Sequence record: DRR378314_1470
Reading direction: 5' to 3' (one strand)
Length of the DNA stretch: 46,270 nt
The position numbers and the translations under genes were made by a program. The notes below the pieces were generated by a model. The model saw only the letters and a program-made list of their open reading frames with translations, made no database searches and had not been told where the DNA came from. Of this stretch, positions 1-45,995 are shown in pieces. Position 1 is the stretch's first letter, and each line of letters starts with the position of its first letter.

Positions 1-1233
1 CCATTTGGCGATGACCACCTTCTGCTGGTTCCCACCCGAAAGCAGGCGAACTTCCTGCACATCTGAAGGTGTACGAATGCCCAACTGCTTGATGTAGGTT
101 TTGGCGCTGTTGCTGATTTTGCCGTCGTTCAGAACGCCGCCCGCACCAGTGAACAGGTCCATCGAAGCAAGCGCGATGTTGTCGCGCACGTTCATGCCGG
201 TGGCGAGGCCAAAGTGCTTTCGGTCTTCTGAAAGATACCCAATCCCCGCTTTGACGGCGTCGGTAGGGGATTTGATGGAAATCACCCGACCATGCACCCG
301 GATTTCGCCGCTATCCTTGGGGTCAGCTCCGAAGATGGCGCGCGCGACCTCGGTTCGGCCCGCGCCCATCAGGCCGGCAAGGCCGAGAATTTCACCCTTC
401 TGAACTGAAAAACTAACATCCTGTATCTCTTTGCCTCGGCTCAGTCCGCTGACCTGCAAAGACATCTCGGCGTCGCCCAGATCAGGCACATCCAACGGCT
501 CTTCCTTGACCTCTCGGCCCACCATCATGGCGATAATCTGGCTGATTGGGGTTTCCGCGGCGACTACCGTACCGACGTATTCACCATCGCGCATCACTGT
601 CACGCGGTCCGATATCTGTTTCAGCTCGTCCATTTTGTGGCTGATATAGACGATGCCAACACCTTCAGCCTTGAGGCGGCGGATGATCACGAACAGCTCG
701 GCAATCTCGGCGTCGTTCAGGGCCGCCGTCGGCTCATCCATGATCAGCACCTTGGATCGAAAGGATAACGCCTTGGCGATCTCGACCATCTGCTGTTTTG
801 CGATGGTCAGGCTGCCCACCAGCGCCCTGGGATCAAGGTTCAGGTTCATCGAGGCAAATATCTCGGCTGTTTGCGCATTCAACGTGGCCTCATCCAGGCG
901 GCCAAAGCTCTTGCGTGGTTCACGCCCAATGAAGATGTTTTGCGCCACGGTCAGATCGTTCATCAGGCTCAGTTCCTGATGGATGATCCCGATGCCCAGA
1001 TCCTGCGCTTCGCGCGGGGATTTCGGGCTGACCTCTTGCCCTTCGATCATGAGGGTCCCGCCGTCGCGTTGATAGATACCCGACAGGATCTTCATCAACG
1101 TGCTTTTTCCGGCACCGTTCTCCCCCATCAGCGCGTGAACTTCGCCCGGATCAAGATCGAACTGCACGGATTTGAGCGCGTGCACACCGGGGAAAAACTT
1201 ATCAATCCCCGTCATGTCGACCAGTTTGGACAT
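1..1233 (-). CDS. Monosaccharide ABC transporter ATP-binding protein (RbsA/MglA-type, two ABC domains); 3' end runs off the window
   Basis: Not in the ORF track (no stop in window). Manual translation from ATG at 1233 (SD GGGAGGG): [20 protein letters not shown]...[14 protein letters not shown] (Walker A)...[10 protein letters not shown]...[15 protein letters not shown] at the window edge. Confidence 0.93.
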
Positions 1234-23171: not shown

Positions 23172-23222
23172 CCCATCCAGTCACGAAGAATTGCGTCTTG
23201 TCGCTGGACGTTAATCGAATAA

Positions 23223-23239
23223 CCTACTATTTAAATCAG
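23223..23239. promoter_or_regulatory. Degenerate Iron-Rhodo-box-like site upstream of bfd
   Basis: CCTACTATTTAAATCAG, same 17-bp geometry as the irpA sites. Confidence 0.4.
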
Positions 23240-23264
23240 AAATACCTGAGCAGGCGGAGTCGCC

Positions 23265-25498: not shown

Positions 25499-25500
25499 CC

Positions 25501-26511: not shown

Positions 26512-26514
26512 TCC

Positions 26515-27603
26515 GTGACGAACCGCCGAGGGTTCATTGCAGGGCTCGCCGCCGCCGCTAGCCTTGCCCCCGTGCCAGCCTGGGCGTCTGTCGGCGCACC
26601 AAGCTTTCTTGCGGCCGCGCTGTTCCCTGATGGCAGCTATCGGCTTTCCGGGCTCGATCAGGCAGGGGTTATCTTGTTCTCGATTCCGTCGCCCGCCCGG
26701 GGTCACGCGGCTGCGGCGCATCCGTTCAAGGCACAAGCCGTCGCCTTCGCCCGCCGTCCCGGCACGTTTGCAATTGTAATCGACTGTCAAAGCGGGACCA
26801 TCATCCGGCCTTTAGAGGCCCCGAAAGGCCGCCACTTTTACGGTCACGGCACTTTTTCGGCCGACGGCACCCGGTTCTTTACAACAGAAAACGATTATGA
26901 AGCCGCGGAAGGCGTGATCGGGGTTTGGGACGCGGTCAGCTTCAAACGGCTTGGAGAGTTTTCTTCAGGTGGCACCGGCCCACATGACATGCAATTGCTG
27001 CCCGATGGCAACACACTGGTGATTGCCAATGGCGGTATCGAGACCCACCCAGACACCGGCCGAACCAAACTAAACCTGCCTACGATGCAGCCTAACCTGT
27101 CTTACATCGACCTTTCGGGATCGATCCGGGCACAGGTGGAATTGCCGCCTGCGTTGCGCAAAAACTCGATCCGCCATCTCGCAGTGCGCGGCGACGGCCT
27201 TGTGGGCTTTGCAATGCAATGGCAAGGCGGCCTGACCGAATATCCCCCACTGCTGGGCTTACACGCACTGGGCAAAGACCCGCTTTTGTTATCGGCGCCA
27301 GAAGCGGATCAAAGCACATTGCAAGGTTACGCAGGCAGCATTGCCTTTTCTGCTGATGGCCAATCAATTGCAATCACATGCCCACGTGGCGACGCATTGC
27401 ATCGGTTCGACGTCTCAAGCGGCGCATTCGCTGAGGCGTTTGCGCTCAAAGATGTATGCGGACTAGGTAGTGGCAGTAAAGGCTTGGTATTCACCACTGG
27501 GACTGGAGCATTTGGCGCCCTGGACCCTGCAGGCGCTGAAATCTCTGCCCGATCGGATTGCCAGTGGGACAACCATCTGATCCCGATCCGTTCCTTTGGA
27601 TAA
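26515..27603 (+). CDS. DUF1513 protein with Tat signal
   Basis: NRRGFIAG twin-arginine; RGH, FARRPG, HFYGHG, TTENDY, GPH, ANGGIETHP, SIRHL, WDNH. Confidence 0.88.
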   Translation: MTNRRGFIAGLAAAASLAPVPAWASVGAPSFLAAALFPDGSYRLSGLDQAGVILFSIPSPARGHAAAAHPFKAQAVAFARRPGTFAIVIDCQSGTIIRPLEAPKGRHFYGHGTFSADGTRFFTTENDYEAAEGVIGVWDAVSFKRLGEFSSGGTGPHDMQLLPDGNTLVIANGGIETHPDTGRTKLNLPTMQPNLSYIDLSGSIRAQVELPPALRKNSIRHLAVRGDGLVGFAMQWQGGLTEYPPLLGLHALGKDPLLLSAPEADQSTLQGYAGSIAFSADGQSIAITCPRGDALHRFDVSSGAFAEAFALKDVCGLGSGSKGLVFTTGTGAFGALDPAGAEISARSDCQWDNHLIPIRSFG

Positions 27604-29594: not shown

Positions 29595-29608
29595 AAGGAG
29601 ACGACCCC

Positions 29609-30820
29609 ATGGGAAAAACACTGGTTGTCGGCGCAGGTGGCGTATCCCACGCCGCTGTGCACAAGATGGCGATGAATTCGGACATCTTCACCGAAATCAC
29701 TCTGGCCAGTCGCACCAAATCGAAATGCGACACCATCGCCAAAGCGGTGAAGGAACGCGTGGGTGTTGATATCGCAACCGCTGAGCTAGACGCTTACAAG
29801 GTCGAAGACACGGTCAAACTGATCAAGGACACCGGCGCCGAGCTGCTCGTGAACCTTGCCCTGCCCTATCAGGATCTGGTGCTGATGGATGCCTGTCTTG
29901 AGGCTGGCATCCACTACCTCGACACCGCGAACTATGAGCCCGAGGATGAAGCCAAGTTTGAATACCATTGGCAGTGGGCCTATCAAGAGCGGTTCAAACA
30001 GGCCGGTCTGACCGCCATCCTCGGCTCGGGCTTCGATCCGGGCGTCACGTCCGTCTTCGCCACCTGGCTGAAGAAACACAAACTGGACACCATCCGCCAG
30101 ATCGACGTGCTGGATGCCAATGGCGGCTCAAACGATCAGGAATTTGCCACCAACTTCAACCCCGAGATCAACCTGCGCGAAGTGCTGGCAGAGGTCCGCC
30201 ACTGGGAAAACGGCGCGTGGCATACCAGTCCAGCGATGACCACAAAGGTCGAATACGACTTCCCCGCCATCGGCCAGAAGAACATGTATCTGATGTATCA
30301 TGAGGAGCTGGAATCGCTGTCGACCCACTTCCCCGAGATCGAGCGCGCCCGCTTCTGGATGACGTTCGGAGATGCCTATATCACCCATGCCAAAGTGCTG
30401 GAAAATGTCGGCATGACGCGCATCGACCCGGTGATGCATGACGGCCAGGAAATCATCCCGATCCAGTTCCTGAAAACCCTGCTGCCCGATCCCGGCGATC
30501 TGGGTGCGGAAACCAAGGGTAAGGCCTGCATCGGCGACATCGCCACAGGTCAGGCCAAAGACGGCTCGGGCGAGAAGACTTATTACATCTACAACATCTG
30601 CGACCACGAAGAATGCTACGCCGAGGTCGGATCACAGGCCGTCAGCTATACAACCGGCGTTCCGGCAATGATCGGTGCAGCCCAAGTGCTGAAGGGCAAC
30701 TGGACCAAGCCGGGTGTATGGAACATGGAACAGCTCGACCCGGACAACTTCATGGACATGCTCAACGAACACGGCCTTCCGTGGCAGGTCCACGAACTCG
30801 ACGGCCCCGTCGAATTCTGA
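29609..30820 (+). CDS. Carboxy(nor)spermidine dehydrogenase (saccharopine dehydrogenase family)
   Basis: GAGGV, NLALPYQDL..MDAC, YLDTANYEP, GSGFDPG, FATNFNPEINLRE, HEELESL, SYTTGVPAMIG. Confidence 0.9.
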   Translation: MGKTLVVGAGGVSHAAVHKMAMNSDIFTEITLASRTKSKCDTIAKAVKERVGVDIATAELDAYKVEDTVKLIKDTGAELLVNLALPYQDLVLMDACLEAGIHYLDTANYEPEDEAKFEYHWQWAYQERFKQAGLTAILGSGFDPGVTSVFATWLKKHKLDTIRQIDVLDANGGSNDQEFATNFNPEINLREVLAEVRHWENGAWHTSPAMTTKVEYDFPAIGQKNMYLMYHEELESLSTHFPEIERARFWMTFGDAYITHAKVLENVGMTRIDPVMHDGQEIIPIQFLKTLLPDPGDLGAETKGKACIGDIATGQAKDGSGEKTYYIYNICDHEECYAEVGSQAVSYTTGVPAMIGAAQVLKGNWTKPGVWNMEQLDPDNFMDMLNEHGLPWQVHELDGPVEF

Positions 30821-30830
30821 TCTGCTTCAG

Positions 30831-30878
30831 CTTCATCTGGCTAAAAATATCTCGGGGGTCCGGGGGCAGAGCCCCCGG
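30831..30878. repeat. Short intergenic REP-like element of a type I recall from Rhodobacteraceae
   Basis: CTTCATCTGGCTAAAAATATCTCGGGGGT followed by hairpin CCGGGGGC-AGA-GCCCCCGG; single copy in this window. Confidence 0.5.
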
Positions 30879-30904
30879 CCTCGCCCACTAAGGAGACGCC
30901 GGAC

Positions 30905-32074
30905 ATGTCCGACATGATGACCACACAGGCAGGCGACGCCGGGGCCTTCCGCGATTTTGATCTAAGTCGCGTGCCGTCCCCCTGCTTCGTGGTCAACGAA
31001 AAAGCGGTTGAACGGAACCTCCGCATCCTCTCCGAAATCGGTTCTCGGTCCGGCGCGCATGTCCTCAGCGCCCTCAAGGCGTTTTCCATGTTCTCGCTGG
31101 CGCCGCTGGTGCGTCAACATCTCGACGGCACTTGCGCCAGTGGCATCTACGAGGCCCGACTTGGCCGTGAGGAATATGGGGGCGAGGTCGCAACTTTCTG
31201 CGCCGGGTACAAAGACGCTGATATTGACGAAATCCTGTCGCTGTCCGACCACATCATCTTTAATTCATCGGCTCAAAAGGACCGGTTCGTCGAAAAGGCC
31301 CAAGCCGCAGGCGTTCAAGTTGGTCTGCGCATCAACCCGGAACATTCCGAAGGCGAGGTTCCCAAATATGACCCCTGTGCGCCGTGTTCACGTTTGGGAA
31401 CGCCTGTCAGCCAATTGACCCCCGACGCTCTGACCGGCGTGGATGGCCTGCATATGCACACCCTCTGCGAACAGGGGTTCGAGCCCTTGCAGCGCACATG
31501 GGCCGCTGTCGAACCAAAGCTCAGGCCATTCCTTGGTCAGATCAAATGGCTGAATTTCGGCGGTGGCCATCACATAACCCGCGACAACTATGACCGCGAT
31601 GGGCTGGTAGCCTTCATCAAGACCATCCGCGCCGAACACAATATCGACGTTTACCTTGAACCCGGAGAGGCCGTCGCACTGGATGCAGGTATTCTGGTCG
31701 GAGAAATCCTGGACCTGCCAACCAATGGCATGAACCTTGCGATCACCGACATCTCGGCCACCTGCCATATGCCCGACGTGATCGAAGCCCCTTATCGCCC
31801 TGCCCTGATGAATGAGACCGAAGCGGGCCACACGTACCGGCTGGGCGGTCCCTCCTGTTTGGCAGGCGATGTGATCGGGGATTACACTTGGGATATACCG
31901 CTGGAAATTGGCCAACGCTTTGCCTTTCTGGATCAGGCCCATTACTCGATGGTCAAAACCAATACTTTCAACGGTGTTCCCCTGCCGACCATCGCGCTGT
32001 GGAATAGCGAAACGGACGCGCTGAAGATCATCAAGCAGTTCAACTACGACGACTTCAAAGAGAGACTCTCATGA
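30905..32074 (+). CDS. nspC: Carboxy(nor)spermidine decarboxylase
   Basis: PSPCFV, ALKAFS (PLP lysine), GLRINPE, YDPCAP.SRLG, GLHMHTLCE, NFGGGHHIT, EPGEA, CHMPDV, CLAGD, YSMVKTNTFNG. Confidence 0.92.
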   Translation: MSDMMTTQAGDAGAFRDFDLSRVPSPCFVVNEKAVERNLRILSEIGSRSGAHVLSALKAFSMFSLAPLVRQHLDGTCASGIYEARLGREEYGGEVATFCAGYKDADIDEILSLSDHIIFNSSAQKDRFVEKAQAAGVQVGLRINPEHSEGEVPKYDPCAPCSRLGTPVSQLTPDALTGVDGLHMHTLCEQGFEPLQRTWAAVEPKLRPFLGQIKWLNFGGGHHITRDNYDRDGLVAFIKTIRAEHNIDVYLEPGEAVALDAGILVGEILDLPTNGMNLAITDISATCHMPDVIEAPYRPALMNETEAGHTYRLGGPSCLAGDVIGDYTWDIPLEIGQRFAFLDQAHYSMVKTNTFNGVPLPTIALWNSETDALKIIKQFNYDDFKERLS

Positions 32075-32913
32075 GCACTTTCCTCGACAGTGAACTTTCG
32101 GCCTCAGAACGCACTGAAGACGCCCGGTTCCACGTGATACCTGTGCCGCTTGAGCGCACGGTCTCCTACGGGTCTGGTACTGCTAAGGGCCCCGACGCCA
32201 TCATAGAGGCCAGCAACGAACTGGAACGCATCACTGGCCACGCCGAACCCTGCGTCGAGGGCATTTTCACCGAAGCGCCCGTCGATTGCGATGCCTCTCT
32301 GTCTGAGATCATGGAGCGCATCGCCCAGCGCACCGAGGCCGCCACCCGCGCGGGCAAAGTACCGGTCACGCTGGGCGGAGAGCATTCGCTCAGCTATGGT
32401 GCTGTGATGGGTGTGGCGCGCGCGCTTAATCAGCCTATCGGCATCGTTCAGATCGACGCCCATGCCGACCTGCGCAACGCCTATCAGGGTGAGAAACACT
32501 CTCACGCGTCGGTCATGCACCTGCTGGCCGAAGAAGGTATCCGTCTGGCGCAGTTCGGTGTCCGTGCCTTTTCGACCGAAGAAGCCCAAAGCCGCCTGAA
32601 AAACCATGTCTTCCACGTGGATGCCGAAGAACTTGTGACTGGCAACATCCACTCAGTCGACCTGCCCGATGATTTCCCCGAACTCATCTATGTCAGCTTT
32701 GATGTCGACGGTCTGGACCCATCGCAGATGCCTGCAACGGGCACACCTGTTCCGGGTGGGTTGGGTTACTATCAATCACTACGCCTCGTGGAACACGCCT
32801 TGAAGGGTCGCAGGTGCGTCGGTTTCGACGTGGTGGAACTGGCCCCCGATGGCAATGCCGCCTGGGATTTCACTGCGGCGCAGATCGTCTATCGCCTTAT
32901 GGCAGCCTGTTAA
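32071..32913 (+). CDS. speB: Agmatinase-type ureohydrolase
   Basis: GGEHS, DAHADLR, SHASVM, SFDVDGLDPS..PATGTPVPGG, FDVVELAP. Confidence 0.85.
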   Translation: MSTFLDSELSASERTEDARFHVIPVPLERTVSYGSGTAKGPDAIIEASNELERITGHAEPCVEGIFTEAPVDCDASLSEIMERIAQRTEAATRAGKVPVTLGGEHSLSYGAVMGVARALNQPIGIVQIDAHADLRNAYQGEKHSHASVMHLLAEEGIRLAQFGVRAFSTEEAQSRLKNHVFHVDAEELVTGNIHSVDLPDDFPELIYVSFDVDGLDPSQMPATGTPVPGGLGYYQSLRLVEHALKGRRCVGFDVVELAPDGNAAWDFTAAQIVYRLMAAC

Positions 32914-34798: not shown

Positions 34799-36214
34799 TT
34801 ACGACCGATCCCGTGTTGCAATCAGGATGCGATGATACCAAAGCCAGCGTAGAATACGGGCTGCGCGGTTGGTATCGAGCATATCAGACCAACGCGCACA
34901 GATGTCCAAACTCGTCGCGGGCCAGTCCAATCGACGCAACAAAGGACCCAGCGAGATCCCCTCCAGATTGGCGACTGGTCGAGGAAGGTTCGGGTGCGTG
35001 ACGACAAGACCGGGCTCGATACGAGAGGCAGCCTGCACGCCGGACCTGATCAGTTTTGCGGTCGGGGACAGGATCAAGGCCTGATCGTCGGGTAACATCT
35101 CGGGGTTCGGATCAGACTGGGACGACTGCAGCCAGTCCACCGGTTGCGCACGCTCGGCCCAAAAAGGTGAAGGATTATGGGCCTGCTGCCGTGCATAGAA
35201 ATCTGCGGCAAGCGCTGCATGGGTCTGAACACGCTCCGCCTGACGGTCGGCATAAAAAGACAAGGCCAGATCGCTATGTTCAGGTGTTTCCTGCAGCGTG
35301 TTCACCACAGCAGCGGCTTGCACAGCCTGCCCCATCGCCAGTTGCACCCCCTGCGATGACAAGGCGTCGACTGTGAAACTGGCTTCCCCCACCCGCAGAA
35401 GATCGTGCGCCGGAGGTGTTGTCTCGGCCCGGCTGGTCGCATCCGTGCGCCGCACGGGCCCGATCCGGCGCTGCTCTAGACAGGGCGACAGCAAAGGCGA
35501 TTGCGCCAGTAGGTTCAGATAAAGATCACGTCGCCCTGCAGGTGACAATCCGGTGCAGGTGTCAGGATTAACGAAAATCATCGCATTAACCACACCGCCG
35601 GGCAGAAGGGCACCCCAATACCAATGCGACGCCCCGGCCTCGACCCGCGCTTGTGGGCCAAAGCCCGGCGGCACCTGCCAATAGGCGTAAAGCGCCAGCA
35701 AGGGTTGGGAAGCTGCGCGAAACCGGCGTCCTAACCCGGCCTGCCGTCCGGCAGCATCGAGAAGGATCTGCGCCCGGATATGGAAGGCGTCCGTTTCGGT
35801 TCGGACCGGTATATTCCAACCAGATCGACCACGTATCGGGCGATATGCGCGCGCGGGCTGGACGATCTGAACACCCGCACCCTGCGCAGCCTGCAGAAGG
35901 ATCGCATCGAATTCGCCACGATCCACCAGAAGGCCGGGATTGTCACCATCAACTCCACGACGCTCAAACGCGCTGGCCCAATGTAGAATCGATCCGCTTG
36001 CACGTAGAAAGCCGGCGTGTGCGACGGGTTGATCAACCCCCAACAGCTTCAGGATCGGCCAGATCGAGGGGGGCAGAGATTCACCGACATGCTGGCGCGG
36101 AAACGGCTGGCGTTCAACCAGGCAGACACGGCGGCCCAGCTGCGCCAGTCTTAGCGCCACCGCGCTGCCTGCCGGTCCACCGCCAATCACGCAGATTTCG
36201 GCTTGTATCGTCAT
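34799..36214 (-). CDS. FAD-dependent monooxygenase, QhpG/LodB-like (putative Trp-modifying flavoprotein for CTQ biogenesis)
   Basis: Real start MTIQAEICVIGGGPAG at 36214 (the ORF-track extension overlaps the radical SAM gene); FPRQHVGESL, VDRGEFD..L, DAAGR, VGEASFTVDALSSQG, AAVVNTL...P....LA..FY..R...DFY......PFW..R. Confidence 0.78.
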   Translation of the reverse strand: MTIQAEICVIGGGPAGSAVALRLAQLGRRVCLVERQPFPRQHVGESLPPSIWPILKLLGVDQPVAHAGFLRASGSILHWASAFERRGVDGDNPGLLVDRGEFDAILLQAAQGAGVQIVQPARAYRPIRGRSGWNIPVRTETDAFHIRAQILLDAAGRQAGLGRRFRAASQPLLALYAYWQVPPGFGPQARVEAGASHWYWGALLPGGVVNAMIFVNPDTCTGLSPAGRRDLYLNLLAQSPLLSPCLEQRRIGPVRRTDATSRAETTPPAHDLLRVGEASFTVDALSSQGVQLAMGQAVQAAAVVNTLQETPEHSDLALSFYADRQAERVQTHAALAADFYARQQAHNPSPFWAERAQPVDWLQSSQSDPNPEMLPDDQALILSPTAKLIRSGVQAASRIEPGLVVTHPNLPRPVANLEGISLGPLLRRLDWPATSLDICARWSDMLDTNRAARILRWLWYHRILIATRDRS

Positions 36215-36218
36215 CGGG

Positions 36219-37529
36219 TCAGGCAGAGGCCGCCTGCGCGGACACGCCAAAATAGTCCGGGCGCGCTTCGGACAAGCGGACATAAGCCTGCAAGCAATGG
36301 TGCAACCAACCGCGAATATAATCGCAAGCGGGGCGTCCACGGTGGATGACTTCGTGATGACAACCGCCGCCACACAGATACCGAGCCCAACAGGTGTTGC
36401 AGGGGGATTGAGTGTGGACGTGTCGATCCGCCAGCCAGTTTTCGCGCCGCAGATCAGGGCCATCATAGACGTCGCCCATCGCTCCGGCCTCGTCCTCGAC
36501 AAAGCGATGGCAGGCGAACAACCCGCCATCGGCTGAAACGCCAAAATATCCACCACCTGCGCCGCAAGCATAGGGGCGGTGCGTGCCGCGGTGGATTTCC
36601 TGCATCGCCGCCGCCATATTCGAGAATGGATAGCGTCGCCCTTGGATCACCGCCGCCTCAAACACCTCACCACAACGGATCATCTGTGTCAGCATCTCGT
36701 CCAAATCGTTCCCGTCCAACTCATGCTGGCCGTTGGGCGACGCCAACATCGGTGAGAACCCGATCGAATGGAAACCCATCCCGACAAACCGATCCAGCGT
36801 TTCAGGCAGGTTCATGTTCTGCGGTGTGACCGTCACCCGGGCACCAACTTGCATGCGATGTTGTGCGGCCAGCAAAGGCTCGACCCTTTTCAGGATCGTA
36901 TCGAAACTGCCCCGCCCACCGCGATTTGGACGCAACTTATCATGCACCTCGCCCACACCATCCAGACTGATCGTGACGGCAAAGCCATGCGCTTCGAAAA
37001 AGGCAGCGTCCTCGGGGCGGAGCAAGGTGCCGTTGGTGGTGATCGAAAAGCCAACACTCAACCCGTTTGCTTGCGCCTGCTCTACTGCATAATCCGTAGT
37101 GCGCTGCACCAGATCGCGGTTAATCAAGGGTTCTCCGCCCAAATAGGCAAGGTTGATCCGTACGCCGGGCTCGGCCTCGGCCACCAGCCGATCGACCGAA
37201 GCTTTGGCGACCTCCCACTCCATATTCCTTGCAAGACCGCCAAATTCTCCGCCTGCCGCATAGCAATAGGTGCAGGCCAGATTGCATTTCTGCGCCACCG
37301 CCAACGACAGCGACCGCACCGGCATGTCCTGGGGTGGCGTATCGTCAATGAACGGCGTGCCGTCCAACCCCATCGACCTGAGGAAAGCGCTTTGGCCGGG
37401 CTGGTCCATCGACGCAAACTGATCCGCCGTTCCGCTGGGTACATCGAACACGCGCGAGCCATCAACGGCCAGCATATGGTCCCCATGCCCGCTGTCAAAA
37501 AAATGCACCTGCGCGGCGGGTGGAATCAC
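36219..37529 (-). CDS. Radical SAM/SPASM protein, QhpD/thioether-maturase-like
   Basis: CNLACTYC (CX3CX2C), GGEPL, TTNGTLL, ISLDG; SPASM CGAG...ACHRF...CNTCWARYLCGGGCHHE...C; GTGA overlap with the upstream stop. Confidence 0.88.
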   Translation of the reverse strand: MIPPAAQVHFFDSGHGDHMLAVDGSRVFDVPSGTADQFASMDQPGQSAFLRSMGLDGTPFIDDTPPQDMPVRSLSLAVAQKCNLACTYCYAAGGEFGGLARNMEWEVAKASVDRLVAEAEPGVRINLAYLGGEPLINRDLVQRTTDYAVEQAQANGLSVGFSITTNGTLLRPEDAAFFEAHGFAVTISLDGVGEVHDKLRPNRGGRGSFDTILKRVEPLLAAQHRMQVGARVTVTPQNMNLPETLDRFVGMGFHSIGFSPMLASPNGQHELDGNDLDEMLTQMIRCGEVFEAAVIQGRRYPFSNMAAAMQEIHRGTHRPYACGAGGGYFGVSADGGLFACHRFVEDEAGAMGDVYDGPDLRRENWLADRHVHTQSPCNTCWARYLCGGGCHHEVIHRGRPACDYIRGWLHHCLQAYVRLSEARPDYFGVSAQAASA

Positions 37530-39286
37530 GCCTTGCCCTCCGTCCAGAACGGAATGCCGATATTTTTGGCAGCCAGTGCTTCACCCTCGTCCCGGAACAG
37601 CTTCATGTCATCGCGCACCTGCTGAATAAAGGTTTGCGACTCTTCAAACTGGCCCTGAGCCTCCAGCGTATAGGCTTTGGCCAGCCCATCTTTGACCTTT
37701 GCATACAGATCAAGCGCCGTTTTGGCCTGCGCTTCAGTCCCGACCTCAATCGGGCGCAGATAGGCAGGTGTGCCCTCACCTGTGTCATATTTGGCCAGAA
37801 CGTCCTTCATCTGGCTGAAACGCAGGAAATGTTCATCGCCGTCCGTGTCAATCCGAACCGCCAGAGCGTACAGGCGACGTTCGGGGAACAAGTCCTCTTG
37901 CTCCAAGGTCGCCACGCATTGCGCATAAGCGCGGTCGATGTAACCGCCAGGGCGCTCGATCTCGATGAAATCCGCAAGGGCTTCGGCGGTTAAGGGACGA
38001 AGCGCGCGCGGCTGCGTCTTACCTCTGCCCGCTGGCAGGGTTTCAGACGGGGTCAGTATGGGCTCGTAATTCTCAGGCTCAAGTTCCCACAGCAGCTGGT
38101 TGGCCCAGCGCATATGGGTCATCTCGCCAATCGCGACCTCCAGAACCGAACGTCGGGCAAAGATCAGATCATCCTTCAGCGTCGGCCATTTCTTGGTATC
38201 CGCCGTATCGGGATCGGCCAGAGAGAAATAGGCATAGAGATATTGCAGGCTCAACGTCATTTCCATCGCAGCCAGACGGGTCCTGAGGTCCTTGATCATC
38301 TCCTCGGGCGTATCGTATGGCTCAACGCCCGGCATTTCGGGATCGACCTCATAAACCTCGCCGGTCTCACGGCCTTCGACCACAATTGGCAGCTCGCTCC
38401 ACATCTGGTTCACCTGATAGTGGTCGATCTGATAAGGGCGGTTCTGTTCCACTGTATTCAGTGCCGCCACATTGCCCGATGGCGACTTGTCCGAGCGTAG
38501 CCAGTCCAGATATGTCTCAGCCTCGATCGGGTTCTTCGACTGGCCCGAGGGCAGCTGATCGTCATGGGCCACCTCGGCCATCACCACGTCAGGGTGGTTC
38601 GAGGGCCAGTAGTGGCAGCCGCAGTCGCGAAAATCATGGGACCACGGGTTGCACAGGCTCTGCGTCAGTTCACCGGGATCATAGGCTTCGCTGAACACAC
38701 CCGCTTCGGTCCGGTACTGGCGTCGGAAACCGTGCAAGACAACTTGTTCAGTATCCACAACCCCTTCGTGATTGCGCCGCTCCAGAGCGATGCTGACCGG
38801 TTTGTCATCACCGTGTTCCAGACTGCGGATAAAACGCCAGATCATCAAGCCATCATAGGGCGTGCCGTCTTCCTCTTTGAAAGTGATCCGCTTGCCGCTT
38901 TGTTCAACCCATGACAGGAACCAGCGCCCCTGGCTGAGCTTTGCGCCCACCTCGCCACTATAGGCCTCCAGCAAGGTCTGCACCCAATCCTCGGTGCTGT
39001 TATCGGGCAGCATCGGGTCGTAGAAATAGTCGACGAATACCAGATGGAAGCCCTGCGAATTCTTCGGCGCTTCGGGCACAGGGCTGAGCGGAACACGCAC
39101 AGCGTTGAACACCAGACCGGGAAAGAAACGCCGGTCGAGGTTGCGCACGTCCATTTCCAGACCGGGAAAGCAATTGCCCACCGATCCGTCCAGACGCGTG
39201 TTATCGGGGTTGCCCGGCACCTTGTAAGCCGCACGAGCGGTCAGGTTACGGGGTGTGACGCGGATTTGGCCGGGTTGATCAGACAT
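37526..39286 (-). CDS. LodA/GoxA-like C-terminal (CTQ-bearing) domain fused to a ferritin-like domain
   Basis: Start MSDQ at 39286 with GGAGG SD; GNCFPGLE, PGELTQSLCNPWSHDFRDCGCHYWPSNHPDVV, MWSELPIVV; then ferritin-like LAAMEMTLSLQYLYAYFSL...IGEMTHMRWANQLL...FIEIERP...DGDEHF. Confidence 0.75.
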   Translation of the reverse strand: MSDQPGQIRVTPRNLTARAAYKVPGNPDNTRLDGSVGNCFPGLEMDVRNLDRRFFPGLVFNAVRVPLSPVPEAPKNSQGFHLVFVDYFYDPMLPDNSTEDWVQTLLEAYSGEVGAKLSQGRWFLSWVEQSGKRITFKEEDGTPYDGLMIWRFIRSLEHGDDKPVSIALERRNHEGVVDTEQVVLHGFRRQYRTEAGVFSEAYDPGELTQSLCNPWSHDFRDCGCHYWPSNHPDVVMAEVAHDDQLPSGQSKNPIEAETYLDWLRSDKSPSGNVAALNTVEQNRPYQIDHYQVNQMWSELPIVVEGRETGEVYEVDPEMPGVEPYDTPEEMIKDLRTRLAAMEMTLSLQYLYAYFSLADPDTADTKKWPTLKDDLIFARRSVLEVAIGEMTHMRWANQLLWELEPENYEPILTPSETLPAGRGKTQPRALRPLTAEALADFIEIERPGGYIDRAYAQCVATLEQEDLFPERRLYALAVRIDTDGDEHFLRFSQMKDVLAKYDTGEGTPAYLRPIEVGTEAQAKTALDLYAKVKDGLAKAYTLEAQGQFEESQTFIQQVRDDMKLFRDEGEALAAKNIGIPFWTEGKA

Positions 39287-40952
39287 TCTGAGCCTCCGAT
39301 TCCTGTGCAACCAGATAGTCGATGAACGAGATCACCAGATGATACTGCCTGCGCGACAGCGACAGCGGGTAGTAATTGGAATCGCGCATATAAGGCGGCA
39401 TCCGCGCGTCGTGCATCGAGTCGCGGATGATGCGTGGATCACGAAAATCTGGATTGGGGTCTTGATCCGGGTTCGGGTCGGTCTCAAGCTCCGTCAGGAT
39501 GCCATAAGGCGGGCGCAACAGAGTTTTTACGAAATCCGGACGACGGCGTAGGAAGTCAAGCAGGTTCGCCTCGTCAATCAGTTGTTCATGCACGAATTTG
39601 GTCGCTACCGTATAGGGCAACCGGTCATTGGGCACCGAATTCGAAAAGACCGAGACTGGCTGCGGGCGGATCAGCTCATCAATCTTGTCCGGCGGCCTTA
39701 CGTCCTTTTCTGTCATCGAGGCCGCATCGGTCGACGGTAGACCCGGTGTTGGGGAAATTCCGGTCTTCGCCTGTAGCTTGGCATTATCCTTCAGACCCTG
39801 CGCACGAATATCGTCGAGGTTGATCAGGCTGTTGGTCTCGAACGCGCGGCGGAAGATATCGACCACTTCGTTTTTGGCCTGCTGGTAATTATCTTCGGTT
39901 ACCGAAATCAGCGACAGATCGCGGTCGGCCAGATCATCCTCAAGGCTGTAGAACGGCCTTGCATCAGGCGCGAAATCGGGCGGGCCAGTCATGATCTGCG
40001 CACGCGCGGTCAAACGCTCACCGCGCACGGCCAGCGTCGCCTCGATCACACCATCGCTGGTGTCATCGGCCACGCCCCAGGATTGGTCGTTGCCCACCCG
40101 CGCGCCATCATAGCTGTCATGTGGTTCAGGATCGTCCGAGGTGCCAGACATCATGATCCATTTCGACCATGGAGTGTCGGGGTTCAGGATGCGGTTCTGC
40201 TCGGGCACGATTTCATGGATGCGACCATATTCCGATTTCGGCGGGTCGTTCTGGTATCCTGGCACCGCGAGAGTGGCAGGGCCATAAGCCGCATCGGGTG
40301 GGCCATAAACCTCACCTTTCGGGGGCAGGAAGCGCAAGCGCAGGATGCTGCGATCGATGAATTCGCCTTCCACCGGTTCATCATGTCCCTGTACCGGATG
40401 GATCGCGCGGACCGAACCTAGCGGGATCGGATTATGTTCATAGACCATCGGCTGCTGTTCGGACGTGTACGGACTGAAGGCCAACAGGGGCTTGGGTGTG
40501 AAATCCTGCCCTGCAATCTCGACCCGTGCACGAAAACCGCAGGCTGCGTCTCCGGTCCGACGCTCGGCCTTGGTGTTCCCGACAGTGACTGAATAGCGCA
40601 CGTTCTGCAGCGACAAGCCCTGATCGTCGAGTAGGTCCAGCGTCACCGGCGTCTCATATATTTCGCCCGTCTCAGCGTCGTGCATCCGCGCCCAAAGCTC
40701 AAAGAACGGCGCAACCGGCCGCAACGCACCGCCTTCGTCACGAAAGCGGATCGTGTCGGGATCGGGAAGGCAGGCGGTAACGCTGCCATCTTCGACTTCG
40801 CGCAGGGTTATGTTCGAGCGGATGACCGTCTTGTTGTTGCCATGGGCATCCAAATCCTGCTGCCACTCATAACTTTCTAGCGGTGTTTCACCCGGTCCCA
40901 AACGGGCAACCGCAATGGGTGGCAGAAAGAAAATCTCCTGAATCGTGTCCAT
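39279..40952 (-). CDS. LodA/GoxA-like N-terminal/core region as a stand-alone protein
   Basis: PPIAVARLG (LodA HPxIGxARxG-like), WGVADDTSDG.I.A (DDxSDG), GPPDFAP, MPPYMRD...LSLSRRQY at the C-terminus; lacks the D-x3-C and WP cofactor motifs. Confidence 0.72.
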   Translation of the reverse strand: MDTIQEIFFLPPIAVARLGPGETPLESYEWQQDLDAHGNNKTVIRSNITLREVEDGSVTACLPDPDTIRFRDEGGALRPVAPFFELWARMHDAETGEIYETPVTLDLLDDQGLSLQNVRYSVTVGNTKAERRTGDAACGFRARVEIAGQDFTPKPLLAFSPYTSEQQPMVYEHNPIPLGSVRAIHPVQGHDEPVEGEFIDRSILRLRFLPPKGEVYGPPDAAYGPATLAVPGYQNDPPKSEYGRIHEIVPEQNRILNPDTPWSKWIMMSGTSDDPEPHDSYDGARVGNDQSWGVADDTSDGVIEATLAVRGERLTARAQIMTGPPDFAPDARPFYSLEDDLADRDLSLISVTEDNYQQAKNEVVDIFRRAFETNSLINLDDIRAQGLKDNAKLQAKTGISPTPGLPSTDAASMTEKDVRPPDKIDELIRPQPVSVFSNSVPNDRLPYTVATKFVHEQLIDEANLLDFLRRRPDFVKTLLRPPYGILTELETDPNPDQDPNPDFRDPRIIRDSMHDARMPPYMRDSNYYPLSLSRRQYHLVISFIDYLVAQESEAQNV

Positions 40953-40991: not shown

Positions 40992-42557
40992 TCAGGGGTT
41001 CGAATATGTCTCATAAGTGATAGTCGGGTCGTCGAAGATCGATTTCGACTTGTCTCGAATAATATCCGCCGGCGCGTCATCGGGCACGGGCGAGATGCTT
41101 TGCTGGTAGTGAAAGAAATTGTTCGGATCGAATTTCTGCTTCACGAACAGTAGCGAGTTGAAATACTCGCCCCAATATTGCCAGCGATAGTTCAACTGCG
41201 TCCGGCGCGGATAGTTTTGATAAACCCGGTCGATGAAATAGCCCTCATCGGTCATCAGCGCCATGAACCCGTCAAGCCAGGGCACAACTGTCTCTTTTTC
41301 CTCTTCGGACAGCCAGAATACATCGACATAGAAGTTCAGTGACACATCGCGATGAATAAAAGCGTTGCCATCTTTACCCAAAGGCATCCGGTTGATCGCC
41401 CCGCCATAAGGTTCGATCGCGACAGCACCATAGGCATTGGGCGTACTGTCGAGGTAATCGACCACGCGCTGCCATTCCGCCGTGCTAAGCTGGCGTTTGA
41501 TGTACCCGGCCTGTTTATCCTCTCGCGCCTGATCGGGCACAACAGGGATGTCGTATTTATCGTCATAGAGCCACGAGTTGATTTCCTGATAGGTGCCATA
41601 GTTCTGATCATCCTCACCCATCTCACCGGCGATTTCATCGCTGAGCAAGGGCTGGACAAACGCATCACCTTCTTGAGGCGTGCCATCATAAAGCGCTGAA
41701 AGCAGCAGCACCTTCTTGTCCCCCTGATAGGCCAAGAAAATATACGCACCAAACCTGTCATCTTTGCAGGTGCTCATGTAATTGGCCTGCAGAAACTCCA
41801 GCGCTTTTGCGGCTTTGTCTAGCGGCCATGTGATGTGGCAACCCCAGACCTTATATAGCGGATGCAGCTGATAACGAATTTCCAGCAGAATACCAAAGTT
41901 GTTACCCGTTCCGCCCCGGATCGCCCAAAACAAATCAGGGTTTGTATCCTTGTCCGCGATTACAATGCTGCCATCCCACAGCATCACGGTGACGCCCAGC
42001 ACATTGTCGCACGCCATTCCAAAACGGCGCGAGGTAAAGCCATATCCGCCGCCCATCATGAAGCCTGCAACACAGACATCCAGACATGCCCCGCCGGGCA
42101 CATGAAGATGATAGGAATTCAGAATCGAGTTCAACATTTTGAACGGCGTGCCCGGCCCCACATAGGCCATCGGCACATCCGGATCGACGCTCACATAGCG
42201 CATCTTGCTGGTGTCCAGCACCATCTGGTTGTTGACCGAATACCCTGCCGTGCTGTGCCGCCCTGATCGCGCCACAACCCAAAGCTCGTGTTCGCGGGCA
42301 AAAGCAAGACTGGCGCGTACATCGTCAATGGTTTCACAATAGACGATGATTTCAGGATAATCCTGAAACGCCGGGTTCCAGACTTGTCGGTCATTGTTGT
42401 ATTCAGCGTCGGTGGGCAGGGTGACCGTTCCGATCAGCTTTTTCTCAAAGGCGCGTATCTGCTCGGGCGAGATCGAATGATATTGCTGCAGCGTCAGATC
42501 GGTGCGGCTTTGCGCCAGGATATCTTTGGCCAGAAGGGTTTTGCTGATCTTACGCAT
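40992..42557 (-). CDS. BBE-like FAD-linked oxidase (FAD_binding_4 plus BBE domains)
   Basis: ARSGRHS (covalent-FAD His), PGGACLDVCVAGFMMGGGYG, DLFWAIRGG..NNFGI, YQNYP...YWG...VKQKFDPNNFFHYQQSI. Confidence 0.88.
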   Translation of the reverse strand: MRKISKTLLAKDILAQSRTDLTLQQYHSISPEQIRAFEKKLIGTVTLPTDAEYNNDRQVWNPAFQDYPEIIVYCETIDDVRASLAFAREHELWVVARSGRHSTAGYSVNNQMVLDTSKMRYVSVDPDVPMAYVGPGTPFKMLNSILNSYHLHVPGGACLDVCVAGFMMGGGYGFTSRRFGMACDNVLGVTVMLWDGSIVIADKDTNPDLFWAIRGGTGNNFGILLEIRYQLHPLYKVWGCHITWPLDKAAKALEFLQANYMSTCKDDRFGAYIFLAYQGDKKVLLLSALYDGTPQEGDAFVQPLLSDEIAGEMGEDDQNYGTYQEINSWLYDDKYDIPVVPDQAREDKQAGYIKRQLSTAEWQRVVDYLDSTPNAYGAVAIEPYGGAINRMPLGKDGNAFIHRDVSLNFYVDVFWLSEEEKETVVPWLDGFMALMTDEGYFIDRVYQNYPRRTQLNYRWQYWGEYFNSLLFVKQKFDPNNFFHYQQSISPVPDDAPADIIRDKSKSIFDDPTITYETYSNP

Positions 42558-42680: not shown

Positions 42681-45600
42681 TCAAGTAGCCGTTTCCAACA
42701 ACGCCCGCGCATCTATTAGATCCGCCTGATCCGCGTCCGGTTCGAAATGAGACAATGCATCGCGCAAGGCTTCGCCCGCTGGCTCTCCACGGCTCTGCCG
42801 CCAACGTGTCAGTGCTATGGCCGCGCGCAATTCGTACAGGCGTGCCCCCTGCCTTTGCGCCGTTTTGATTGACTGCAACAGCAAAGGTTCAGGGTCGCCA
42901 CCGGTATTGGCGACAAAGGTGGCTTCGATTCGTAGCTGCTCGGCTTCGGCCCATTTCTCTTCGGTTTCGGACAACATTTGGGCAGCGTGCGATAAAGTCT
43001 GCTCAGCCGCCTTATGATCACCCGCGTTGATTAGAAGCTCGGCGATCAGAGACGGGAAGAAACACTTATAGTTTCCTGCCCCAACGGCCCACCAGTCTTC
43101 CGAGGCTTGGCGCAAACTATCAATATGGGTGATATCAGAGGATTCTGTCGCCTTTGCCCAGCTTTCCCACAATCGCGCAATGGTGGCCATGAAGGGCAAC
43201 GAATGCTCTTCGGCGACCTTGGACAGAGCTTCGACATCTTGCTGCAACGCCGGGATGTCGCGGGCCAACAGGTGAACCTTGCACATATAGACCAGAATCT
43301 GGGCCACGCTGTGAGCGTGCTTCAGATCCTTTGCCCAGTCCAACGCGGTACGCTGAACCTGCAAGGCTTCCTGGTGCCGCCCCATCAGGCAATAACACGT
43401 CCCCAGAAAGGCCGATGTAATGGCGGCGTGATCTGTACCGTAGACATAGGCCAACTGGCTGTGTTGATCGAAATCGTACAACGACCAGGCTTGTTCAAGG
43501 TGTGTCTTCGCCTCGGGCAGATTGCCCAGATGCAATTGCACCGCACCCATCGCGCGATGGCCAACCATCCGATGCTCGGTCCTGCCGCTTTCCGCAGCCA
43601 GATCAAGTATCTGTGACGATACGTCTTGCGCCAAACGATATTCCGCGCGCACCAGATGGAAGGCATAAAGCCCATTGAGAACAGGGAACAGTCTGTCGGT
43701 CTCATCCGCGCGATGGCAGAGATCGCGCAGGCGGCCATAGGCCTCGCCCGTGGCATCCCCTGAGATTCCGCTGGTCGAGCGCAGAACACCCGCCCGCAGG
43801 ATCTGGATGTCGATCTCCTGCAGATCACGGTCTCGGCTCTTGGGCAGGTCTGCCAATTGGTCCAAAGCCGTTGATAGATGCGTCAGCGCCTCGGTCTGGG
43901 CCGAGCGTTCAATGGCCCGCTGCCCTGCACTTTGCCAATGCAAGACAGCCTCATCTGCGCGCTGGGCCAAGGTGTAATGCTGCGCAAGAACTTCGGGCTG
44001 CGTCTGGGCAAGCTGAGGTTGGTTTTCCAGCAATGCGCCTGCTGCACGGTCATGCAATACCTGCCGTTCCGTGCGCAGCAGACTGTCATATGCCATGTCT
44101 CGGATCAAAGCGTGGCGGAAGATGAATTCATCTTCTGCCTCATCGGGCGCCTGAAGGATGATACCGGCTGAAGAAAGCTGCTCTAGCCCAGCTTGCAAAA
44201 CCGTCGGAGACAGAAACGACACCGAGGCCAGCAGCGCGATGGAAAATTGTCGGCCGAAGACGGCACCAGTTTGTGCCACTTCTTTGGCTTTGCCCAAACG
44301 ATCCAGACGCTCCATCAGCGAGTCCTGCAGCGTACTGGGAACAGAAAGTGATGGCAGCGGCCCACGCAGGGCATATCCTTCATCGGTCAGCCGCAACTGC
44401 CCCGATTCCAGCAAGCCACGCGTGACTTCCTGAATAAAAAGCGGGATGCCGTCGGTTTTGGCTGCAATCAGATCGCAAACCTCGGGCGGCACCAAATTCC
44501 CTCCGGCCACTTCCGCCACGATCTCAGCGACGTCCCGATGTTCCAGACGTCTGAGCGGCAGATGCAGTGTATTGTTGTGATGCCCCCAACCTGGATCAAA
44601 GCCGGGACGTGCCGTCACAACAATAAGCACCGGCAATTCCCGAATGCGTTCAATCACCCGGTCGGTCAAAGACAAAGTGGTCGGATCAACCCAGTGGGCA
44701 TCCTCAAACAACAACAATACAGGCTTATCACGCGCCAGCGCGGCAAGTTGTTCAGTCACCGCTTCCAGCGTCTGCTCAAGCTTTGCCTGCGGCGGCAGGT
44801 CAAGTGGCCCAAGTGCTGCGTCCGCTTCGACGCTCAGCAAATCGGCGATAAGACGCACATGTTCGGGCGGGTGGTGACGCAGGAGATGCGACAGCTTTCC
44901 GAGTTTATCCTCGTCACCGTCCGATGGTGCGAACCCTGCCGCACGTTCCAGATGTTGAATGATGGGATAGAGCGCGGAATTGGCGTGAAACGGAGAGCAT
45001 TGGAAATTCAGCCTTAGCGCGCCCTGATCCTGCACCTCCTGGCTCAGCCCTTCGATCAGGCGCGATTTACCAATCCCAGCCTCACCTGAAATCAGCACAG
45101 ATTGGCCTGCACCCTGACACGCCTCGTGCCATTTGTCGGTCAGCTTGCGAAACTCGGCCTGACGCCCGACAAGTCGCCCCGCCCCCGCATCCGGCATGAT
45201 GTCAAATCTACGTTCGATACGGGCCTGCCCCGTCACGATCCAGGCTTGAACCTGTTCCGAGAATCCCTTGAGTGCGAATGATCCCCGATCCCGAAGCTCG
45301 AATGCATTGCCAATCAACCTGCGGGTTGAAGGGCTGATGATCAGGGTATTGGGCTCGGCCAGCCCCTGCAGGCGAGCGGCCAGATTGGGCGTGCGCCCCA
45401 TGACCACATCATGTTCTTTCAACCCTTCGCCATGGATCTCACCAACCACGACGAGGCCGGTCGACACACCGATCCTTGCGCTCAGCTTTTCCTCACCTTC
45501 GATGAGGGTCAGCCCGTCCAGAATATCCAGACCTGCATGAACAGCCCGCGAGGCCGCATCTTCAACTGCGTGAGGGTAGCCGAAATAAATCATCGCCCCA

Positions 45601-45995
45601 TCGCCCATGAAGCTCGCGATATGTCCGCCAAACCGAGCTACCGAAGTCGAACAGATTTCTTTGAACCGGCGCAGCAGCTCACCCAGATCTTCAGGGTCCA
45701 GACGCTCCGACAGGGCCGTCGAACCAACGAGATCCACAAACATCACAGTCAATTGACGGCGCTCGGCCACGATCTTGCCGCTGCCCTGAACGGGTGTCGG
45801 GTTTGCATCTCGTGCCCGCCCCAAGGCCGCCATCAGCCGCCGCCTCGGCCCCAATGGAAGACCCAAGTCGATGAGATCATGTTCGGTCAGGTGTCCCAGA
45901 TCAGTCAGAGAAACTTCGTTCGAAGCAAAAACGGGCGCAAACTTCGACAGTCCAAGGTCTTCAAGAAATGTGTCGATCTCTGCCATTATCCCCAT
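42681..45995 (-). CDS. SAM domain + class III adenylate/guanylate cyclase + STAND AAA ATPase + TPR-like protein
   Basis: SAM (FLEDLGL..FAPVF...DLIDLGLPLGPRRRL); ERRQLTVMFVDLVGST, MGDG, TPNLAARLQ; Walker A GEAGIGKS; Walker B LLLFEDAHW; GIPLF; C-terminal ELRAA. Start may be ATG 45986. Confidence 0.9.
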   Translation of the reverse strand: MGIMAEIDTFLEDLGLSKFAPVFASNEVSLTDLGHLTEHDLIDLGLPLGPRRRLMAALGRARDANPTPVQGSGKIVAERRQLTVMFVDLVGSTALSERLDPEDLGELLRRFKEICSTSVARFGGHIASFMGDGAMIYFGYPHAVEDAASRAVHAGLDILDGLTLIEGEEKLSARIGVSTGLVVVGEIHGEGLKEHDVVMGRTPNLAARLQGLAEPNTLIISPSTRRLIGNAFELRDRGSFALKGFSEQVQAWIVTGQARIERRFDIMPDAGAGRLVGRQAEFRKLTDKWHEACQGAGQSVLISGEAGIGKSRLIEGLSQEVQDQGALRLNFQCSPFHANSALYPIIQHLERAAGFAPSDGDEDKLGKLSHLLRHHPPEHVRLIADLLSVEADAALGPLDLPPQAKLEQTLEAVTEQLAALARDKPVLLLFEDAHWVDPTTLSLTDRVIERIRELPVLIVVTARPGFDPGWGHHNNTLHLPLRRLEHRDVAEIVAEVAGGNLVPPEVCDLIAAKTDGIPLFIQEVTRGLLESGQLRLTDEGYALRGPLPSLSVPSTLQDSLMERLDRLGKAKEVAQTGAVFGRQFSIALLASVSFLSPTVLQAGLEQLSSAGIILQAPDEAEDEFIFRHALIRDMAYDSLLRTERQVLHDRAAGALLENQPQLAQTQPEVLAQHYTLAQRADEAVLHWQSAGQRAIERSAQTEALTHLSTALDQLADLPKSRDRDLQEIDIQILRAGVLRSTSGISGDATGEAYGRLRDLCHRADETDRLFPVLNGLYAFHLVRAEYRLAQDVSSQILDLAAESGRTEHRMVGHRAMGAVQLHLGNLPEAKTHLEQAWSLYDFDQHSQLAYVYGTDHAAITSAFLGTCYCLMGRHQEALQVQRTALDWAKDLKHAHSVAQILVYMCKVHLLARDIPALQQDVEALSKVAEEHSLPFMATIARLWESWAKATESSDITHIDSLRQASEDWWAVGAGNYKCFFPSLIAELLINAGDHKAAEQTLSHAAQMLSETEEKWAEAEQLRIEATFVANTGGDPEPLLLQSIKTAQRQGARLYELRAAIALTRWRQSRGEPAGEALRDALSHFEPDADQADLIDARALLETAT

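Follow-up and report, generated by a model that had tools for sequence, protein, structure and literature searches.

A conserved split LodA/GoxA-like protein encoded with QhpD- and QhpG-like maturases: a candidate two-subunit quinoprotein family

Cysteine tryptophylquinone (CTQ) is known from two systems that have been studied separately: from LodA (an L-lysine epsilon-oxidase) and GoxA (a glycine oxidase), which are single chains matured by a flavoprotein alone, and from quinohaemoprotein amine dehydrogenase (QHNDH), where maturation of the small subunit involves a protease as well as a radical SAM enzyme and a flavoprotein. Here we describe an operon in a 46,270-nucleotide stretch of DNA from record DRR378314_1470 (the window) in which two neighbouring genes, geneA and geneB, appear to combine a LodA/GoxA scaffold with the modified-residue set and the maturases of QHNDH. 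As geneB contains the Cys/acid/Trp set that is cross-linked in QhpC, the family may link the two quinone systems. Its members, found in Pseudomonadota, Cyanobacteriota, Actinomycetota, Acidobacteriota and Myxococcota, are annotated only as 'hypothetical' or 'ferritin-like', and we found neither a split LodA nor a LodA-like protein paired with a radical SAM enzyme described in open-access papers and preprints, supplements aside. We consider it fairly probable that geneA and geneB encode two subunits of one LodA/GoxA-fold enzyme, with a QhpC-type loop that is matured by QhpD- and QhpG-like enzymes. The genes in question are the following:

geneA, 39279..40952, minus strand: 557 residues; N-terminal scaffold of a LodA/GoxA-like protein according to its predicted fold
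geneB, 37526..39286, minus strand: 586 residues; putative cofactor-bearing module and ferritin-like domain
geneA/geneB junction, 39279..39297, minus strand: stop codon TGA at 39279-39281, ATG at 39284-39286, GGAGG at 39293-39297
radical SAM/SPASM maturase gene, 36219..37529, minus strand: best NCBIfam match QhpD (TIGR03906)
FAD monooxygenase gene of the QhpG class (NF049967), 34799..36214, minus strand

Every gene of the operon lies on the minus strand. The C-terminal block of geneA reads RDPR..RD..D.RMPPYMRD..PLSL..RQY, and 20 residues separate its motif M518-P-P-Y-M-R-D524 ... L530-S-L ... Q536-Y537 from the stop codon, in line with an earlier note, made from the sequence alone, according to which the first gene stops soon after an MP..D...LSL...QY motif. 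The same note had pointed to a Shine-Dalgarno sequence and an 8-nt overlap that belong to the second gene, and both can be read in the sequence: GGAGG lies 6 nt upstream of the geneB ATG, and the two genes share 8 nt (ATGTCTGA). The junction geometry is identical in the loci of the Ruegeria clade. A QhpD-like enzyme, which the note had invoked, is indeed encoded next to the pair, as QhpD-like radical SAM and QhpG-like genes directly follow geneB; the radical SAM gene has a GTG start that overlaps the geneB stop by 4 nt, and the FAD monooxygenase gene starts 4 nt past the radical SAM stop. We also rejected the idea that the operon holds a small precursor gene of its own, as the only gaps are of 39 nt and 4 nt and the remaining junctions overlap.

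The assignment of geneA is based on its fold. In profile searches it stays below the thresholds, with 17.8 bits on Pfam LodA_N (PF17990; gathering threshold 26.3), 18.3 bits on NCBIfam LodA (NF038172; cut-off 600) and 14.2 bits on GoxA (NF038173; cut-off 750). A Foldseek search of the PDB with the AlphaFold model (mean predicted local distance difference test, pLDDT, of 76) returned LodA and GoxA chains exclusively in its top rows, with a best E-value of 4.3e-9. VIA-align superposed residues 6..547 of the model on LodA 2..420 with a Z-score of 12.7 (286 residues aligned, root mean square deviation 10.3) and the model on GoxA 4..532 with a Z-score of 12.3, the next unrelated fold having a Z-score of 7.5; global TM-scores against LodA and GoxA are low (0.26). 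By hhalign, geneA matched five unsplit alphaproteobacterial LodA-like proteins, which came from the five of 301 genomes that had a match, with a probability of 86.9% and an E-value of 4e-6 over 340 columns. Since Foldseek, VIA-align and hhalign all place geneA with LodA and GoxA, it would represent LodA up to about residue 420, and on its model it is the N-terminal scaffold that comprises residues ~2-420 of LodA or ~4-540 of GoxA. At the place of the split, the unsplit LodA-like proteins have a proline-rich stretch that varies in sequence and is flanked by two conserved blocks, a natural break point.

The division into two genes is widespread. In word-indexed searches, geneA had 512 homologues and geneB 688, 120 of each being listed; almost all of those listed have about 550 and 580 residues, respectively, and their sources are Ruegeria, Bradyrhizobium, Aquabacterium, Ideonella, Microcoleus and Actinomycetota. 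Limiting the search to longer proteins gave 16 fused forms of 1124-1255 residues and two remote proteins of about 1000 residues. Among representatives at 50% identity, an exhaustive search yielded a list of 150 proteins, 35 of them with full coverage, the match beginning no later than query residue 25 and ending no earlier than residue 540; 29 of these stand alone (513-604 residues), five run on into a geneB-like part, and one has an unrelated N-terminal extension. Gene order was then compared at 64 loci (contigs, one genome per species, classified by local BLAST), 62 of which hold both parts, with geneA alone in the other two because the contig stops there. The parts are split in 59 of the 62: geneB follows geneA directly in 44, the radical SAM gene stands between them in nine, and the geneB equivalent is itself divided into an N-terminal module and a ferritin-like protein in six. 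They are fused in three (L007, L042 and L058). Homologous loci are split at the same point, a check that the note had proposed: the geneA stop lies 10-38 nt ahead of a PRN motif near the geneB start in 41 of the 45 measurable adjacent loci (129-235 nt in the other four). An overlap of 1, 4 or 8 nt between stop and start is seen in 39 of the 45, a count that uses the start codon nearest to the stop and is thus biased towards short distances. A quick maximum-likelihood tree built from the geneA parts shows the loci with an intervening radical SAM gene as monophyletic (support 100), likewise the three-part loci (support 99), and it places the three fusions at three separate points, with L007 inside the Ruegeria clade among 14 split rows. 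The split is genuine, ancient and conserved.

Some of these loci show further variation. The three-part loci form a cyanobacterial clade (L037, L038, L039, L041, L044 and L051; for example L041:7977-14687), with the gene order geneA, cofactor module (~330 residues) and ferritin-like domain (~310-340 residues), followed by the radical SAM and QhpG-like genes. The clade in which the radical SAM gene lies between the halves (L015, L018, L019, L021, L023, L054, L055, L056 and L064) comprises Acidobacteriota, some Cyanobacteriota and one Acidimicrobiales genome. A member of the flavoprotein cluster is found beside the core genes in seven of these nine loci, upstream of geneA and on the opposite strand in six, and L021 has a QhpG-like gene downstream. 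The geneB of an uncultured Ruegeria genome (L006:9622-11439), counted among the 44 directly adjacent pairs, is broken by a frame change near residue 126, and P0260, a fused metagenomic protein among the five that run on into a geneB-like part, goes out of frame inside the cofactor loop; both may represent decay or assembly errors.

In geneB, the positions that matter most for a comparison with LodA and GoxA lie in two segments:

PGxE motif C39-F-P-G-L-E44, 39155..39172, minus strand: aligned with GoxA, LodA-like proteins and QhpC
putative cofactor loop C212-N-P-W-S-H-D218-F-R-D-C222-G-C224-H-Y-W227-P-S-N-H-P-D233, 38588..38653, minus strand: each residue present in 121 of 121 sequences

All such counts refer to the window protein and its 120 listed homologues. 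The PGxE motif comes directly after the split, as stated in the note, so that the LodA motif order is kept across the two polypeptides: PP.A.AR.G, W..DD..DG...PPD(F/Y)AP, LSL..RQ, PGxE, PG(D/E)LT....PW..D...C, W-P-x-x-x-P. In the alignment, geneB PGELTQSLCNPWSHDFRDC corresponds to LodA 498-516 (PGDLTKRMACPWQADFFNC), whereby D218 falls on LodA D512 and GoxA D678, and C222 on the cofactor cysteine C516; H-Y-W227-P is aligned with LodA Y579-W-W581-P, which puts W227 on the cofactor tryptophan. Excerpts of PMC4417212 give C516 and W581 as the CTQ residues of LodA. D218, C222 and W227 are each present in 121 of 121 sequences. The corresponding GoxA residues would be C682 and W696/697, according to an alignment anchored on D678 and H583 from PDB entry titles; a literature search did not return GoxA cofactor residue numbers, and a PDB search with a short LodA-like fragment, seeking LodA W581, gave chance rows only.

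The first cysteine of geneB is C39 (codon 39170-39172), followed by F-P-G-L-E44. Opposite N38-C39-F-P-G-L-E44, GoxA has G581-F-H583-P-G-V-E587 and the LodA-like proteins have HPGCE; in this alignment the position of GoxA H583, for which an H583C mutant is named in a PDB entry title, falls on LodA residue 448 (Cys448) and adjoins C39. By alignment, C39 is thus the neighbour of an active-site position and not the cysteine of the cofactor. The note had placed the split just before the cofactor region and had singled out C39; the cofactor-bearing module does follow the break, but C39 was rejected as the CTQ cysteine, as LodA Cys516 and Trp581 align with C222 and W227, about 220 residues into geneB.

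The likeness to QHNDH concerns more residues. In QhpC, according to the parts of PMC8172795 and PMC7876137 that cover the cross-links, CTQ is formed from Cys37 and Trp43, and further cross-links connect Cys7 with Glu16, Cys27 with Asp33 and Cys41 with Asp49. Six QhpC precursors from Pseudomonadota genomes (eight loci were found, two near-identical ones being omitted) reproduce this numbering. The counterparts in geneB are as follows:

QhpC C7: geneB C39
QhpC E16 (in PGWE): geneB E44 (in PGLE)
QhpC C27: geneB C212
QhpC D33: geneB D218
QhpC C37: geneB C222
QhpC C41: geneB C224
QhpC W43: geneB W227
QhpC D49: geneB D233

All eight modified residues have collinear counterparts that are kept in 120 or 121 of the 121 sequences, and the spacings C-x5-D, D-x3-C and W-x5-D are the same in both proteins. 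The pattern C-x5-D-x3-C-x(1-3)-C-x(1-2)-W-x5-D occurs exactly once in the geneB-like open reading frame (ORF) of 62 of the 64 loci; no other ORF of the 5,264 six-frame ORFs contains it, nor does any of 13,600 shuffled geneB-like ORFs, and it is found in six of six QhpC but in none of the five unsplit LodA-like proteins. Three of the four invariant cysteines (C39, C212 and C224) are not general in LodA and GoxA, and by analogy with QhpC they are the expected donors for a QhpD-type enzyme.

The genes for suitable maturases accompany the pair. The flavoprotein scores 315.5 bits on the QhpG family (cut-off 240) over the full profile length, as opposed to 127.9 bits on LodB (cut-off 400) and 121 bits on GoxB, and in local phmmer comparisons the radical SAM enzyme matched six QhpD proteins with E-values of 5e-65 to 6e-75. 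Among the 64 loci, the radical SAM cluster is present in 61 and the QhpG-like flavoprotein cluster in 59; no further conserved gene cluster was seen. No canonical QhpC was found in any of six genomes from the same genus or in the nearest related genome, and therefore the maturases do not serve an ordinary QHNDH in that genus.

The two remaining parts of geneB are a family-specific insert and the C-terminal domain:

inserted alpha/beta domain, geneB residues 58-195, 38702..39115, minus strand: confident model
ferritin-like four-helix bundle (PF12902), geneB residues 325-581, 37544..38314, minus strand: Pfam and fold match

The insert of about 135 residues lies between the PGxE motif and the cofactor loop, where the matching gap comprises ~60 residues in GoxA (600-660) and ~30 in LodA. 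The C-terminal ~260 residues score 45.9 bits on PF12902 (gathering threshold 22.3), and they superpose on the PF12902 protein CC_0557 of Caulobacter (PDB 3HL1, chain 3hl1_B) with a Z-score of 19.7 and a root mean square deviation of 2.6 over 218 residues. In distinction to such proteins, the domain is here fused to a quinoprotein-like module, or encoded next to it in cyanobacteria. Among 39 aligned sequences, no variation is seen at E342, E388, H391, E444 and H486, which are putative ligands of a di-metal site. PF12902 genes have also been reported beside fungal lodA-like genes in a passage of PMC4417212, which is therefore a precedent for an association of quinoproteins with ferritin-like proteins. 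With the whole geneB model, Foldseek matched nothing beyond the ferritin-like domain.

How would such a system work? In the proposed mechanism, geneA supplies the N-terminal scaffold, and geneB supplies the PGxE motif, the cofactor loop and the appended ferritin-like domain; the conserved N-terminal block of geneB (residues 12-37) would belong to the cofactor module. The QhpD-like radical SAM enzyme would introduce up to three Cys-to-Asp/Glu thioethers (C39-E44, C212-D218 and C224-D233), and the QhpG-class flavoprotein would hydroxylate W227, whose cross-link to C222 would result in a CTQ-like cofactor. Matured geneB and geneA could then assemble to an amine or amino-acid oxidase or dehydrogenase. 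That geneB is a polypeptide of its own, translationally coupled to geneA, probably gives the maturases access before assembly, as with QhpC.

Such an enzyme would resemble LodA and GoxA in the fold of geneA and in the equivalents of the cofactor Cys, Trp and Asp in geneB, and a flavoprotein of the same superfamily is encoded in the operon. It would differ from them in that it consists of two polypeptides, in a distance of only 5 residues between cofactor Cys and Trp (65 in LodA, 14 in GoxA), in three extra invariant cysteines, the insert and the fused ferritin-like domain, and in the presence of a radical SAM enzyme and of a flavoprotein that is nearer to QhpG than to LodB. With QHNDH it would have in common, besides the residue set and the adjacent QhpD and QhpG homologues, that the cofactor part is on a separate polypeptide, with an N-terminus that is leader-like in its length and in one short motif. 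The differences here are that geneB has 586 residues and the QhpC precursor only ~110, that the partner subunit is LodA-like, and that no genes for the QhpA dihaem protein, the QhpB propeller, the QhpE protease or the QhpF exporter are found among 31 window ORFs scanned with Pfam, which include all ORFs of at least 200 residues; reading the N-termini of the system by eye, without a predictor, we noticed no export signal.

Several points weigh against this interpretation. The score of geneB on Pfam LodA_C (PF18417) is 19.5 bits (E 8e-4) and thus below the threshold of 25, and 10 of the 120 listed homologues carry an annotation with this family; NCBIfam gave no match. The LodA matches of geneB in the PDB are weak (E 0.88 and 0.53), as is the hhalign match to the unsplit LodA-like proteins (E 1.3e-3, probability 18%). 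The likeness of geneB to LodA is, as far as sequence comparison goes, at the motif level, and it recurs in four comparisons, each of which is weak singly. As to QhpC, the residue pattern is post hoc, written to fit geneB and QhpC after viewing both, geneB has no match to the QhpC Pfam family (PF08992), and the hhalign score of the QhpC core with geneB 195-310 is not above that of column shuffles (81 of 200 reach it). The best NCBIfam match of the radical SAM enzyme, QhpD, has 309 bits and does not reach the cut-off of 453. The three natural fusions mean that a separate polypeptide is not required, and two remote relatives, P0257 and P0258, combine an N-terminal ferritin-like domain with a geneA-like part in which the Cys/Trp loop is missing, the scaffold therefore being able to serve another chemistry. 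A complex prediction for geneA with geneB 1-330 (ESMFold2, without alignments) had a score of 0.00 with an uncertain partner fold and speaks neither for nor against binding, and a protein atlas search with geneB 1-330 gave no usable match. Apart from these, a further relative, P0285, has a long unrelated N-terminal region with a GSSGSGKS P-loop motif in front of its geneA-like part.

If the interpretation holds, it would provide a testable route to the origin of QhpC and a radical SAM enzyme that acts on a protein of 586 residues, and the natural split, fused and three-part versions could be used to ask why cofactor modules are encoded apart. From their sequences, the homologues would add a large set of candidate amine or amino-acid oxidases.

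Other explanations have to be weighed against it. A frameshift, a sequencing error or a pseudogene could have divided what is normally a single ORF, and such an ORF does exist in the close relative Ruegeria sp. HKCCA6707 (87% identical) and in 15 other proteins. The note had named fused close homologues as the finding that would speak for an artefact, and one of the 15 rows of the Ruegeria clade is indeed fused; the other 14 are split, however, and the fused gene is set apart from its split relatives by a rewritten, in-frame Pro/Ala-rich linker and not by a single-base shift. Moreover, the 59 split loci come from at least six phyla and are broken at the same point, with start codons of their own that mostly overlap the stop, and in nine of them the radical SAM gene sits between the halves. 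At 39279-39310, where the note had asked for a read-level check, there is no indel: contigs of four public sequencing runs (contigs and not raw reads, one run possibly being the source of the window) span 39260-39331 with zero indels. As far as sequence data reach, an artefact or recent lesion is refuted, and we consider its probability negligible; the note's view that the split is real has held up.

The note had also offered a reason for the split, namely that it frees an N-terminal leader (residues ~1-38) that recruits the QhpD-like enzyme and is retained because a QhpE-like protease is absent. The segment is the following:

geneB residues 1-32, 39191..39286, minus strand: ~11 variable residues, then a PRNLTARAA...GNP block

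It is collinear with the 28-residue leader of QhpC, and residues 1-48 of the QhpC precursor align end to end with geneB 1-47 in hhalign with an E-value of 0.016; of 200 column shuffles, 5 score as high, and for the leader part alone the count is likewise 5 of 200. Common to both are P-x-N-x-[KT]-A near the start, V-x-x-C and then PG-x-E-x-D, and, counted from the start, the first cysteine stands at position 35 of the QhpC precursor and at position 39 of geneB. R13, N14, N26 and P27 are conserved in 120 of 121 sequences and R18 in 114, and in most lineages geneB starts just 5-12 residues ahead of the PRN motif. The radical SAM enzymes appear to have a QhpD-like N-terminal strand-helix domain, about 25 residues shorter as judged by eye and unscored, and QhpD binding requires the QhpC leader according to part of PMC7876137. 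A subtilisin-like protease was absent from the 31 scanned window ORFs, as the note had said of QhpE, and no conserved protease gene was found in the 64 loci. Residues 1-44 are modelled as disordered (pLDDT < 50) when geneB is folded alone; the other most conserved parts (212-238, 255-275 and 296-317) have equally low values, and low confidence may therefore only reflect a need for geneA. Against a leader speaks that the fused L007, L042 and L058 hold the segment internally, behind a linker of 15-25 residues, and are nevertheless followed by both maturase genes. The unsplit LodA-like proteins, which have no radical SAM gene, also contain a conserved block ahead of HPGCE, albeit with a sequence unlike that of geneB, and the segment may therefore be a scaffold element. 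In addition, the shared motif is short, the QhpC sample comprised six sequences, p is only ~0.025, and three of the four cysteines lie beyond a folded domain of 135 residues that follows the segment. Residues 12-37 might dock the radical SAM enzyme in the manner of the QhpC leader and be retained, a suggestion from sequence likeness that we put forward tentatively; as the reason for the split, the freeing of a leader is likewise an idea that we would not favour over its opposite.

A more radical alternative is that the system is not a quinoprotein at all, its LodA-like parts being a non-catalytic or substrate-binding scaffold, its ferritin-like di-metal domain the catalyst, and its radical SAM and flavin enzymes introducing different modifications or having a different substrate. 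The loop-free P0257 and P0258, the fungal gene neighbourhood in the passage of PMC4417212, the invariant E and H residues of the ferritin-like domain, and a homology of geneB to CTQ proteins that is at the motif level throughout are all compatible with this. It would leave unexplained, however, why the equivalents of the CTQ Cys, Trp and Asp and three further Cys/acid pairs are invariant (120-121 of 121), it does not fit with a flavoprotein above the curated QhpG cut-off, and cyanobacteria encode the ferritin-like domain separately yet keep the loop module. We therefore consider it improbable, and prefer the two-subunit quinoprotein.

The two-subunit reading can be extended. A comparison of QhpC (L072-L079) with the LodA family and geneB showed that PGxE, C-x-P-x3-D-x3-C and W-P-x3-P-D are common to both in the same order, and the QhpC gamma subunit looks like a shortened LodA C-terminal cofactor region, a resemblance of sequence motifs for which hhalign gives no statistical support. 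In the extended version, the QhpC gamma subunit and the LodA/GoxA cofactor region would be homologous, with the geneB family as the link between them, the retained leader would recruit the QhpD and QhpG homologues for a knot of three thioethers and CTQ, and the di-metal ferritin-like domain would be a second redox site. As a whole, we regard this as speculative and rather unlikely.

Upstream of geneA, the window contains two more genes on the same strand:

FAD_binding_4/BBE oxidase gene, 40992..42557, minus strand: 39 nt upstream of geneA
regulator gene, 42681..45995, minus strand: SAM domain, adenylate cyclase, AAA_16 and TPR repeats; resembles TIGR03903

A homologue of the BBE oxidase is found in 37 of the 64 loci. 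The regulator has 519 bits on TIGR03903 ('TOMM system kinase/cyclase fusion'; cut-off 706), and a homologue stands next to the operon, on either strand, in 39 of the 64; in the nine loci with the intervening radical SAM gene, neither a BBE oxidase nor a regulator homologue was matched. A few kb from the putative amine-oxidising operon, polyamine-metabolism-like genes are located at 27705-32913 (plus strand), which encode an arginine decarboxylase, a saccharopine-dehydrogenase-like protein, an Orn/DAP/Arg decarboxylase-like protein and an arginase-family protein. They are separated from the operon by an LptF/LptG permease gene and an HD-domain gene, homologues of which were matched only in the loci of the Ruegeria group (L001-L013 and L020). 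Further away, at 21842-27603 (plus strand), four genes encode an imelysin, a di-haem oxidoreductase (DHOR), a second imelysin and a DUF1513 protein, which may be an iron-uptake-like set.

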